Assembly: GCA_964344605.1 (NCBI GenBank)
Contig: CAYFNR010000002.1
Location: 2,140 to 66,139 of the forward strand
DNA from: Candidatus Woesearchaeota archaeon
GTDB lineage: Archaea > Nanobdellota > Nanobdellia > UBA10117 > ARS21
Direction of reading: 5' to 3'
Length of the DNA: 64,000 bases
Position numbers and translations under genes: made by a program. The notes under the pieces were generated by a model. That model worked only from the letters and a program-made list of their open reading frames with translations, made no database searches and had not been told where the DNA came from. The number at the start of each line of letters is the position of its first letter. The first letter of the stretch is position 1. Below, in pieces: positions 66-11,988 of the stretch.

Positions 66-527
66 CTATTTTTCGGTTTCACTGGCCGGTACGAACCTTC
101 CAGGCATCCTCATAGGTAGTGGTAGGTTCAAACCTTCAGATATTGGCACCGCTTTACCAAGTCCAACTACAAGTATTCTGTTTTTGATTAGAGCATCTAT
201 TTCTGGATCCATTTTCTTCTTTTTCCAATCTTTTATAATCTTTTTCAGCTCTTTTTCTTCCCCCATTGCTAGAATGGCTCCTTCTACACTTATAGATGAC
301 TTCCCACTGTAATCTGCCTTGAAAATAAAGTCGAAGGCTATGCCTGATTTTTTCTCTCCACCAGGGAAAAGTTCCCGGATCTCAGCGTTTTCAACCCTAA
401 CATCCATATTTATAGTTAAATTAGCGTCAATGTCTCCTTTACGCTCACCCAAAATTCTATCTAACCTGTGACCTACGATTTGCATTGTTTTGGCAATAAT
501 ACGAGTAAGGTTTTTAAAACTTGTCAA
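66..527 (-). CDS. hypothetical protein (153 aa), downstream of Cys-rich surface protein gene
   Basis: Intact ORF overlapping stop of upstream gene by 4 nt (operon-like); no recognisable motifs. Confidence 0.4.
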   Translation of the reverse strand: MTSFKNLTRIIAKTMQIVGHRLDRILGERKGDIDANLTINMDVRVENAEIRELFPGGEKKSGIAFDFIFKADYSGKSSISVEGAILAMGEEKELKKIIKDWKKKKMDPEIDALIKNRILVVGLGKAVPISEGLNLPLPMRMPGRFVPASETEK

Positions 528-1765
528 AATTCTTTCGCTTTTCTGGCGATTCTAATAATGGACCCAAGATAGATTACTACTCCAACTAAAAAGAAGACTA
601 GGATGGTTAAAGCAAGCCTCTGACTTTCCTTCTCTTTTAGCAATATTGTGGAAACACATTTTTTGTCGTCTCCACAAACTTCGCTTTTACATTCATAATC
701 ATTTCCACATACAGAACCTCCTGCTTTTATGGTTTTCCACCCCGAATCAGAACAGTAAAATGTTCCACCAAAACTTAGATTAGAACGCTCCCCAATATTT
801 TCACATACTCTGAACTCTTCCACGCACTCTCCAGCCGAGCAGGTCAGACCAGTTGTACAGCCACAGTCATTTACACAGCTTTCACAAGTTTCAGGATATT
901 CACATTTGTTATCTCCGCACACAACTTGATGTGGACAGTCATTGTCATTTATTTCTGTGCATCCTGGTGGACAGAAGCCATCGTTGAATTTACATTCTGT
1001 TATGTTTGAAAATATACAACTTCTTGGGTTTGCGTCAGTCCCATACCCTGAGCAAGCACCAACTATCCCTCGACTAGTATCGTCGCAGTCGTAGTCATAC
1101 GAGCAAGTGTTGTTTGCTGAACAATCTGAGTCTTTTCCTTCACCAGCCGTGCCGTACTCACAGCCAGATGGGCAGAAATCATCTGCATTTTTACATTCAG
1201 TATTTGGTACGTATTCACATTCTCCTGGATTCCTTGCATCTCCATTGCAAGAGTCAATTGTTCCGGGGTTGTCATCATCACAATCTCTGTCTTTGTAGCA
1301 TGGCTTGTAACAGTCACTATCCATCATCCAGTTACATGTGGTAGGACAACAACCGTCACTGTCAACACAAGCGGTAATGTTTTTGGAATGGTCTTCACAT
1401 GTTCTGGGCCGACCGGAGCATTTGTTAATAGTACATGCATTTCCGTCGTTACAATCTTCATCAGTAGTGCATAAATGCCGCCATTTAGCCGTCATTATTA
1501 TTGTGGCCATTCGCTCATTTGGATCTTGCGCGAAAAAAGTTTCATTTATCGTGACATTGACTCCATCTATTACAGATGAGTCTGAAACGACTCCAGTGGT
1601 ATTGTAATCTATACGGACTAGCACATTGCCGTTGCTAGCTACAGACAACAGCTCAAGAAATCTTGTGTCTGCTTCTATGGTTTCTCCGACTTTAATAGTC
1701 TCTTCAACTGGTGAGAAAGCTGCTACTGTAGGAATTATGAATAGTAGGAGTAGCAGGCGTCGCAT
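524..1765 (-). CDS. secreted cysteine-rich repeat protein with N-terminal signal peptide and C-terminal TM anchor
   Basis: N-term MRRLLLLLFIIPTVAAF hydrophobic signal; ~60 Cys in repeated D-x-D-C / C-x-x-G-C spacing with internal repeats (ECKNADDFCPSGCEY.. / ECKFNDGFCPPGCTE..); C-term hydrophobic helix LALTILVFFLVGVVIYLGSII followed by basic tail. Confidence 0.6.
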   Translation of the reverse strand: MRRLLLLLFIIPTVAAFSPVEETIKVGETIEADTRFLELLSVASNGNVLVRIDYNTTGVVSDSSVIDGVNVTINETFFAQDPNERMATIIMTAKWRHLCTTDEDCNDGNACTINKCSGRPRTCEDHSKNITACVDSDGCCPTTCNWMMDSDCYKPCYKDRDCDDDNPGTIDSCNGDARNPGECEYVPNTECKNADDFCPSGCEYGTAGEGKDSDCSANNTCSYDYDCDDTSRGIVGACSGYGTDANPRSCIFSNITECKFNDGFCPPGCTEINDNDCPHQVVCGDNKCEYPETCESCVNDCGCTTGLTCSAGECVEEFRVCENIGERSNLSFGGTFYCSDSGWKTIKAGGSVCGNDYECKSEVCGDDKKCVSTILLKEKESQRLALTILVFFLVGVVIYLGSIIRIARKAKEF

Positions 1766-1803
1766 ATTGAAAAATGACGTCAGAGATATAAATAGTTTAA
1801 GAA

Positions 1804-1876
1804 TAGCCCCGGCCGGATTCGAACCGACGTCACGAGGCCCAGAACCTCGTATGATTAACCACTACACCACAGGGCT
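1804..1876 (-). tRNA. tRNA-Gln (anticodon CTG)
   Basis: Cloverleaf read by hand on minus strand: acceptor AGCCCTG/CGGGGCT, anticodon stem CGAGG/CCTCG with loop TTCTGGG, T-arm GTCGG-TTCGAAT-CCGGC, discriminator A. Confidence 0.75.
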
Positions 1877-1919
1877 ATAACATAAGCGTTATAAACTTCA
1901 TTTTAAAAGGTTTCTCTAA

Positions 1920-11614: not shown

Positions 11615-11634
11615 CAATATTAAGCAGAATTCTT

Positions 11635-11900
11635 GGGCTAGGCTGGCGGTTTAGGGGTCCGCTTTTACTTGAAGTCCTCTAATGCAAGAGCCGAAGCTTT
11701 GGGGGCGGCATGCTTGTTTGGTGCTGTCTTGTGAAGTAGTGTCGAAGCGTTGCCTTTGGGGGCATCACTTTCATGTGAACCTGGTCAGGCGGGGAACCGA
11801 GCAGCCATAGCGTGGTTTTGATGTGCTCCAAAGTAGTGGCGTGGAGCTGTTTCTCAAGGTTAGCAGTACTGTGCTTATGTGTCCACCTCATTGCGTGCCC
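11635..11900 (+). ncRNA. ffs: signal recognition particle RNA (7S / SRP RNA); ends approximate
   Basis: GC-rich island in AT-rich genome with no credible ORF; 11780..11816 CCUGGUCAGGCGGGGAACCGAGCAGCCAUAGCGUGG closely matches the universally conserved SRP RNA domain IV / helix 8 (compare E. coli 4.5S CCAGGUCAGGUCCGGAAGGAAGCAGCCAAGGCAG) including GGAA tetraloop. Confidence 0.65.
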
Positions 11901-11904
11901 ACTT

Positions 11905-11988
11905 GCCGAGGTCGCATAATCTGGTATTGCGCTGGCTTGCTAAGCCAGTTTCCTTCGGGATGTGCGGGTTCAAATCCCGTCCTCGGCG
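11905..11988 (+). tRNA. tRNA-Ser (anticodon GCT) with long variable arm
   Basis: Acceptor GCCGAGG/CCTCGGC, anticodon stem CTGGC/GCCAG loop TTGCTAA, long variable arm TCC-TTCG-GGA, T-arm GCGGG-TTCAAAT-CCCGT, discriminator G. Confidence 0.8.

Follow-up and report, generated by a model that had tools for sequence, protein, structure and literature searches.

A cysteine-rich candidate surface protein built from small composite modules in a Woesearchaeota-type DPANN archaeon

We analyzed a 64,000-nucleotide stretch of DNA from a Candidatus Woesearchaeota archaeon (NCBI GenBank assembly GCA_964344605.1, contig CAYFNR010000002.1, positions 2,140 to 66,139 of the forward strand), hereafter called the window, and concentrated on a gene near its start that encodes a cysteine-rich protein (the Cys-rich protein). 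From the N- to the C-terminus, the domain order is a signal peptide, an N-terminal domain (N-domain), three tandem modules (M1, M2, and M3), module D, module E, and a transmembrane (TM) helix. Domain limits were drawn from alignment and hidden Markov models (HMMs), and AlphaFold2 (AF2) models are given with their predicted local distance difference test scores (pLDDT). The gene and its features are as follows.

524..1765, minus strand: coding sequence of the Cys-rich protein, a predicted type I membrane protein of 413 aa; ATG start, stop codon at 524-526; from the list of open reading frames (ORFs)
1718..1765, minus strand: predicted signal peptide of the Sec type, residues 1-16 (MRR, LLLLLFIIPTV, and AA, followed by F); from hydropathy
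1472..1717, minus strand: all-beta N-domain, residues 17-98, no Cys, three N-x-T sequons; eight strands in the AF2 model (pLDDT 91-94)
1310..1471, minus strand: module M1, residues 99-152, a canonical CTDC-CCP module with 10 Cys, among them the optional pair C111/C139; 50.3 bits with the leave-out HMM described below
1121..1300, minus strand: module M2, residues 156-215, 8 Cys, both optional Cys absent in the module alignment; leave-out HMM, 46.0 bits
935..1105, minus strand: module M3, residues 221-277, 8 Cys, both optional Cys absent in the module alignment; leave-out HMM, 41.1 bits
824..919, minus strand: module D, residues 283-314, 8 Cys, with the sequences CGDNKCEYPETCESCVNDCGCTTGLTCSAGEC and CGDNKCEYPETCESCVNDCGC...; delimited by HMM; AF2 pLDDT below 50
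656..805, minus strand: membrane-proximal module E, residues 321-370, 6 Cys; delimited by HMM; AF2 pLDDT 71-83
551..616, minus strand: predicted C-terminal TM helix, residues about 384-405; Kyte-Doolittle window above 2.0, AF2 helix at residues 373-412
527..550, minus strand: short basic tail, predicted to be cytoplasmic, residues 406-413 (IRIARKAKEF region); read from the sequence
1786..1792, minus strand: TATA-like box (TTTATAT), its centre about 24 nt upstream of the start codon (ATG)

The translation contains 40 Cys (9.7%), 38 Asp (9%), 28 Asn, and 34 Gly residues; the initial annotation, made from the DNA letters before this work, had given ~60 Cys. This is by far the highest Cys content of all window ORFs, and no other ORF in the window carries the modules. 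The motif D-x-D-C occurs six times, CP..C three times, and C..GC twice. Both sequence strings that had been quoted as internal Cys/Asp repeats were present, at residues 190 and 257, and they belong to a region in which three modules were recovered by the leave-out HMM.

We conclude that the ORF at 524..1765 is a genuine gene. The identical protein is encoded on 4-6 independent metagenome contigs, all 40 of its 40 Cys are invariant in equal-length orthologues at 60% and 53% identity, and a TATA-like box precedes it; the ORF lies in DNA of 39% G+C. A lack of conserved Cys spacing had been set beforehand as refuting the prediction, whereas conserved spacing was found both in these orthologues and in the module Cys columns across the wider family. 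The alternative that the ORF is spurious or a pseudogene has practically no probability left: nothing was found in its favour, and it is already refuted by conservation, with the same-length orthologues joined by 382 profile matches, the TATA-like box, and a confident AF2 model. A-T-rich, TATA-like boxes lie at the same distance before the orthologues at two related loci, L005 and L020. Judged by the archaeal TATA consensus, the box may act as the promoter, in which case the transcript would be leaderless or near-leaderless.

The topology signals were consistent with the earlier proposal of a secreted, C-terminally anchored protein. The hydrophobic N-terminal segment, MRRLLLLLFIIPTVAA followed by F, is organised into n-, h-, and c-regions like a Sec signal peptide, a pattern that recurs in 17 family members; the AF2 model places a low-pLDDT helix at residues 2-14. 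Judged from the sequence, cleavage would fall before this F. No lipobox was present and no Cys precedes residue 99, which does not fit a lipoprotein. At the other end, a hydropathy TM segment was found at the same place in most of the same-architecture members checked (14 in all). With the basic RIARKAKEF sequence behind it, the positive-inside rule predicts a type I topology (N-out, C-in). The sequence preceding the TM segment, KEKESQRLALTIL, contains no PGF, and a search with NCBIfam sorting-domain models gave no match, so an archaeosortase substrate was not indicated. The linker, TM helix, and basic tail (residues 371-413) contain no Cys. The ectodomain has a net charge of -37 and a pI of 4.19, and seven N-x-S/T sequons in the protein suggest N-glycosylation.

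We then characterized the repeated modules. The 52-aa consensus is C..D.DC.D.N.[C]T.D.C…C…ITxC…DG[C]CP..C….D.DC, where brackets mark optional Cys. A leave-out HMM, built from other family members only and excluding the window protein and its two close orthologues, recovered M1-M3 end to end with 41-50 bits (independent E-values 1e-17 to 1e-14). When the module region was residue-shuffled 500 times, the scores were below zero among the matches listed, indicating that the repeats are not an effect of composition. The AF2 model of the full-length protein, computed with the 17-sequence family alignment, had a mean pLDDT of 80.4, with the N-domain above 90 and the modules at 82-90, and a single-module model based on 133 modules reached 87.1.

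To place the protein among its relatives, a profile of three orthologues was searched against 1.84 billion cluster representatives. The search yielded 382 matching proteins at a threshold of E<=1e-3, of which 99 passed E<=1e-10 and 17 passed E<=1e-30. In about 20 of these clusters the architecture is the same, with a signal peptide and N-domain, two or three modules, D and E where present, and a TM helix. The 17 aligned members (27-61% identity) have the same domain order and conserved Cys columns, and we propose them as a new family. Modules D and E are optional, and one subtype (P0006, P0137, and P0143) has the order N-D-M-M'-E-TM; the modules thus appear to behave as shufflable units. The source names of homologues include 'uncultured DHVE6 group euryarchaeote', 'Candidatus Woesearchaeota archaeon', and 'Candidatus Nanoarchaeia archaeon', so that the proposed check for DPANN homologues gave a positive result. 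The description of such proteins as uncommon in archaea was, for DPANN, overstated, as module-bearing proteins are found in 382 cluster representatives, several of them named DPANN. A scan of GTDB genomes with orthologue patterns yielded no confirmed match. No GTDB species representative has an MCM more than 62% identical to that of the window, and the best matches are all from metagenome-assembled genomes of Woesearchaeota, Pacearchaeota, or Nanoarchaeota. Together with the homologue names, this supports a DPANN host genome of the Woesearchaeota/Pacearchaeota type.

The module also occurs outside this architecture. Its fusion partners elsewhere are carboxypeptidase-regulatory/Ig-like, NHL propeller, LamG, and CARDB domains; these fusions to extracellular domains independently support a role as an extracellular spacer. 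It was further found in surface proteins of bacterial Myxococcota/Acidobacteriota (P0005, P0007, P0008, and P0043), one of which, the deltaproteobacterial P0043, combines it with myxo_disulf_rpt (TIGR02232) and a MYXO-CTERM sorting signal. The window protein shares the same 52-aa module with these cysteine-rich, acidic repeat proteins, but it lacks myxo_disulf_rpt, has far fewer repeats, and carries an archaeal-type N-domain and a plain TM anchor.

We next considered whether the Cys residues are paired in disulfides or bind metal. The alignment compared 305 unique complete modules, drawn from 171 proteins. Cys was >=98% conserved at eight columns, and conservation was 92-100% for Thr at column 14, Pro at column 41, and the Asp residues at columns 9, 37, 49, and 51. 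Across the 17 family members, the module Cys columns were invariant or >90% conserved. Two further Cys columns are optional, namely column 13 (the 'NAC-T' Cys) and column 39 (the first C of 'CCP'). Both were occupied in 164 of the 305 modules and neither in 138, with only 3 discordant cases (Fisher p 1.8e-84, not corrected for phylogeny). This co-occurrence indicates that columns 13 and 39 form a disulfide, which would be C111-C139 in M1. In addition, the Cys count was even in every Cys-bearing domain of the window protein (10, 8, 8, 8, and 6). Given that the two optional Cys come and go together and that each domain holds an even number, we favour disulfide knots over metal clusters; a three- or four-ligand metal site would not show such pairwise gain and loss. 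The remaining Cys are predicted to be paired in disulfides too, and the conserved Asp at columns 9, 37, 49, and 51 may form a Ca2+ site.

In favour of a metal-binding or metal-sequestering surface protein, either metallothionein-like or with Cys/Asp sites for Fe, Zn, or Cu, the ORF is the most Cys-rich in the window, with 9.7% Cys, 9% Asp, and six D-x-D-C motifs. We nevertheless regard this reading as very unlikely. Besides the strictly pairwise replacement and the even counts, there is a single CC and almost no CxC or CxxC cluster of the metallothionein type, which features dense CxC/CxxC/CC clusters whose Cys are not pairwise replaceable. The Pfam search gave no match to metallothionein or any other metal-binding family, AF2 folds the module confidently with no ligand, and the predicted location is extracellular.

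Comparison with known families identified one partial relative of the module. Dicty_CTDC (PF00526) is a 24-aa Cys-rich repeat of Dictyostelium extracellular matrix proteins that also occurs in bacterial surface proteins. M1 alone matched its Pfam profile with an E-value of 3.6e-4 and 20.7 bits over profile positions 1-14 of 24, and 53 of the 133 single modules matched at E<=1, the best at 1.3e-7. The gathering cut-off of 27 bits was not reached by M1, and the whole protein gave no PF00526 match at E<=1. The core motif of Dicty_CTDC, C-x-D-x-N-x-C-T-x-D-x-C, is present in three tandem copies; in the module alignment, columns 7-18 read C, D (0.92), [ND], C/S, T (0.93), D (0.83), C. The first half of the module (DC.D.N.CT.D.C) thus resembles Dicty_CTDC, as do its extracellular, tandem occurrence and its richness in Asp, Asn, and Thr between the Cys. 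Unlike Dicty_CTDC, however, the module is 52 aa long, with the match spanning about a quarter of it, and its second half, ITxC...DG(C)CP..C....D.DC, has no counterpart in the 24-aa repeat, nor does the optional disulfide that would link the halves. By sequence, therefore, the first half appears Dicty_CTDC-like, whereas the second half and the predicted linking disulfide are described by no model, and we refer to the whole as the CTDC-CCP module. Dicty_CTDC itself is listed among the repeat families without known structure (PMC8078820).

Other searches were negative. The whole Cys-rich protein had no match in Pfam, NCBIfam, PDB sequences, PHROG, or PADLOC. No NCBIfam model covers the module, not even in those bacterial carriers that have many repeats; the CCP module profile retrieved nothing from PDB sequences, and a Foldseek search of the single-module model against the PDB returned zero matches. 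Calcium-binding EGF (cbEGF), LDL-receptor class A (LDLa), and thrombospondin type 3 domains are small, tandem extracellular modules with several disulfides and acidic residues beside the Cys, and serve as rigid spacers. The 52-aa modules are likewise small and tandem, with several predicted disulfides and invariant acidic residues beside the Cys, but they differ in Cys number and spacing, and neither the whole protein nor any of the 133 single modules matched EGF, cbEGF, LDLa, or TSP_3 in Pfam. Dickkopf_N (best E 0.014) and Disintegrin (E 0.13) were each matched by 2 of the 133 modules. A Giardia-type VSP was not indicated either, as there is essentially one CxxC (C294-C297), the tail is RKAKEF rather than CRGKA, and Pfam gave no match. 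Hence, none of the families proposed for checking (EGF, Dickkopf, VSP, metallothionein, and thrombospondin-like) accounts for the protein. A literature search on Cys-rich or disulfide proteins of DPANN or Woesearchaeota found nothing on this family. Against the viral structures of BFVD, the only Foldseek matches were to unnamed beta proteins of 80 aa, none better than E 3e-3, and the DNA pattern for DGCCP..GC...D.DC had two chance matches in viral contigs, in which the HMM detected no module.

The N-domain is an unmodelled, repeatable beta domain. It had no match in Pfam or NCBIfam, and its HMM detected 62 copies in 54 proteins, some as tandem arrays of 2-3. It is also the most divergent part of the ectodomain, with 24% identity compared with 36-38% non-Cys identity for M1 and M2. 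Tandem copies (2-3) were seen in the other secreted proteins P0089, P0112, P0117, P0130, and P0087, with the pattern ...LLNVGS.G.hhV.VDG....NGh.I.V...FY....ER.A.L, and P0089 carries LamG and CARDB as well. When the full AF2 model was compared with the PDB by Foldseek, the sole match was the Methanosarcina S-layer DUF1608 domain 3u2g (E 8e-3, probability 1.0, 103 columns), with a root-mean-square deviation of 4.5 and low TM-scores of 0.15/0.22; the match presumably lies in the N-domain. Like archaeal type I anchored envelope proteins, the window protein combines a predicted signal peptide and a beta-rich, sequon-bearing ectodomain with a TM helix at the C-terminus and a short basic tail. It has no sequence match to S-layer families, however, and lacks a PGF-CTERM or archaeosortase signal, and we know of no S-layer protein that is built from disulfide knots. 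In a profile search against the PDB, the N-domain gave low summed E-values to designed Pizza propellers and the PknD NHL domain, but this similarity was rejected as an artefact: the matching stretches scored about 9 bits (independent E-value about 10), the targets are identical tandem repeats, and AF2 predicts a single beta-sandwich-like domain.

Modules D and E were likewise recurrent units. The module D HMM detected 45 copies in 30 proteins, tandem in some, with the motif CGDxxC...DCGC; module D had no match in Pfam or the PDB, where a profile search yielded only DKK4 at E 3.5. The module E HMM detected 59 proteins with one copy apiece, which precedes the TM helix in those read, and its motif is C.NIGER..YC..GW..K..G..C..DYEC.S..C....C. 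A profile of 34 E modules aligned the last four Cys with LEAP-2 (2l1q) over 24 residues (E 1.1e-3, 22 bits), which is near noise. LEAP-2 has a four-Cys core, C-x5-C-x4-C-x4/5-C, with 1-3 and 2-4 disulfides. We treat this resemblance as a lead, not as membership.

Since LEAP-2 is an antimicrobial peptide, and small disulfide knots are generally frequent in toxins, this alignment also bears on whether the protein is a toxin-like cysteine-knot protein, as the initial annotation had allowed, or an antimicrobial one, released from the surface to act on other cells. Such a function is highly improbable. The protein is predicted to be TM-anchored and has no evident processing site, its gene sits in a conserved slot surrounded by genes for replication and translation, not in a mobile or variable island, and no PADLOC, PHROG, or toxin-family match was obtained; the LEAP-2 match itself is short and limited to four Cys. 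The pairwise Cys co-occurrence, the even Cys counts, and the membrane anchor thus disfavour both the metal-binding and the toxin readings that had been proposed.

The chromosomal surroundings of the gene were then compared among related loci. The neighbouring features are as follows.

66..485, minus strand: p139, 139 aa, ATG start (MQIVGH...); orthologues of 137-139 aa share the MQIVGH start
511..519, minus strand: TTTTAAAAA box, 26-34 nt upstream of the p139 ATG, inside the 38-nt spacer after the stop codon of the Cys-rich gene
1803..1877, minus strand: tRNA-Gln(CTG), from ARAGORN and Rfam; directly upstream of the Cys-rich gene, marking the edge of the slot
p139 family, 134-171 aa: window 66-485 (minus strand); L005 8346-8762; L009 6165-6569; L013 9021-9536; L019 11094-11609; L020 11502-11936

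The slot TBP-MCM-RPA-aIF2beta-DUF424-[tRNA]-Cys-rich-p139-...-wHTH (wHTH, winged helix-turn-helix) is shared by six lineages: the window, L005, L009, L020, L092, and L093. Across these syntenic lineages, the Cys-rich proteins are 27-61% identical. A tRNA adjoins the Cys-rich orthologue in L009 too. In the window, the tRNA-Gln(CTG) on the minus strand and a tRNA-Arg(GCG) on the plus strand lie divergently at 1803-1991, between the DUF424 and Cys-rich genes. The aIF2-beta (2301-2726) and DUF424 (103 aa as called in L001) genes overlap or abut at 1993-2726 on the minus strand, and this pair is conserved downstream of MCM-RPA in all related loci examined.

The gene p139 is a conserved neighbour of the Cys-rich gene, which it follows in six lineages. 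It is also present without the Cys-rich gene in L013 and L019, and keeps the MCM-RPA-aIF2beta neighbourhood even where that gene is absent. The initial annotation had described a co-operonic ORF of 153 aa. That version requires a TTG overlapping the stop codon of the Cys-rich gene, and the ATG supported by orthologues gives 139 aa. A conserved TATA-like box, TTTTAAAAA, is shared by four loci, namely the window, L005, L009, and L020, so p139 probably has its own promoter. With this box and its occurrence without the Cys-rich gene, a shared operon appears doubtful. The p139 protein showed no signal peptide or TM segment and no match in Pfam, NCBIfam, PDB (including a profile search), PHROG, or PADLOC; a relationship to DUF7504 was rejected, as the two were unrelated by hhalign.

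Taking these results together, we consider it reasonably probable that the Cys-rich protein is a surface-anchored, disulfide-stabilised stalk that displays a variable head. The protein would be exported by Sec and then anchored as a type I (N-out, C-in) protein at the surface of a Woesearchaeota/Pacearchaeota-grade DPANN archaeon. Once the signal peptide is removed, the ectodomain would be a string of small independent domains, in which four invariant disulfides would lock each of M1-M3 and M1 would carry the optional fifth. The five disulfide-locked domains (20 disulfides) would then form a rigid, very acidic, protease-resistant rod, possibly stiffened further by Ca2+ on the near-invariant Asp. 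This rod would hold the distal 80-aa beta-sandwich head, the more variable part, away from the membrane. The head-on-stalk arrangement is proposed because the N-domain is the least conserved part of the ectodomain and forms tandem arrays elsewhere. The likeliest job of such a structure would be structural or adhesive, either in organising the cell envelope or in contact with another cell or surface. From the architecture, a stalk or adhesion role is expected and an adhesin is plausible; attachment to a host specifically is much less certain.

Several points weigh against this interpretation. The function is read from architecture, and the relatives are unannotated. The disulfide geometry and any Ca2+ site are predictions, and a WCxxC motif scan found no thioredoxin-like oxidoreductase in the window. 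Furthermore, only 1 of 80 Woesearchaeota/Pacearchaeota MCM loci in GTDB (L020) has the Cys-rich gene in the slot, and the family is therefore restricted to a subclade rather than being a universal envelope component. Finally, in a related subtype, represented by P0006 and P0175, the gene shares an operon with genes for KaiC-like ATPases and DUF7504 proteins. This arrangement is a hint of signalling as opposed to a purely structural role.

This last point leads to the possibility that the protein is an extracellular sensor or receptor, whose ectodomain binds a ligand or senses the state of the envelope and signals through the TM helix to cytoplasmic partners. The P0006/P0175 subtype shares the N-domain, the D, CCP, and E modules, and the TM helix with the window protein, and in two genomes it is encoded in an overlapping-gene operon beside two KaiC-like ATPase genes (PF06745). 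This suggests that the subtype may be linked to KaiC-type signalling. A wHTH gene two genes downstream of the Cys-rich gene in several loci also fits a sensor. In the window protein, however, the cytoplasmic tail comprises only about 8 residues and lacks any signalling domain, and neither KaiC-like nor DUF7504 genes are present at the window locus. The neighbouring p139 is unrelated to DUF7504, is preceded by a promoter-like box of its own, and is also found at loci that lack the Cys-rich gene. For the window protein, we therefore judge a sensor to be unlikely, although less so than the metal-binding or toxin functions. At the subtype loci, the operon order is DUF7504, a 143-aa multi-TM protein, the Cys-rich protein (327-328 aa, P0006/P0175), and DUF7504 (L007 7004-9526; L010 4004-6529).

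Contact with other cells is believed to be essential for DPANN archaea, yet very few of their surface proteins have been defined. The Cys-rich gene provides a compact, conserved, clade-specific candidate for such a protein, with 413 aa, a single copy in the window, and a fixed chromosomal slot. Its anatomy predicts 20 disulfides, one of which is pinned by co-occurrence, as well as Ca2+ binding by invariant Asp and a variable head on a conserved stalk. Three small domains (the CTDC-CCP module, the CGDxxC...DCGC module, and module E) and a repeatable beta domain lie outside Pfam and NCBIfam, and models of CTDC-CCP, D, E, and the N-domain would annotate hundreds of 'hypothetical' surface proteins. 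The family is thus unannotated and clade-specific, and is built on a composite module of which only half resembles a known repeat, but it belongs to a kind already known, the extracellular disulfide-rich repeat proteins. If it is merely a structural component of the envelope, its value lies mainly in annotation. It also raises the question of how a probably anaerobic archaeon with a reduced genome oxidises so many extracellular Cys. A broader and more speculative proposal, which we hold to be rather unlikely as a whole, is that CTDC-CCP is an undescribed, possibly Ca2+-dependent disulfide-knot fold common to surface proteins of DPANN and Myxococcota/Acidobacteriota, that the Cys-rich family provides an envelope-spanning stalk for host or partner attachment in one Woesearchaeota/Pacearchaeota clade, and that the KaiC-linked subtype couples surface contact to cytoplasmic signalling.

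Some other features of these loci were also recorded. A tyrosine recombinase gene (Phage_integrase, XerA-like) is located 2-7 kb downstream of the Cys-rich gene at three loci (L001 17971-18759, L005 12825-13643, and L009 7895-8695), and LAGLIDADG and HNH-like ORFs are interspersed downstream in L005. On the plus strand of the window, an archaeal signal recognition particle (SRP) RNA (RF01857, 128 bits) at 11631-11904 is followed without a gap by a tRNA at 11905-11988, and the two (11631-11988) may be a co-transcript processed by RNase P/Z.

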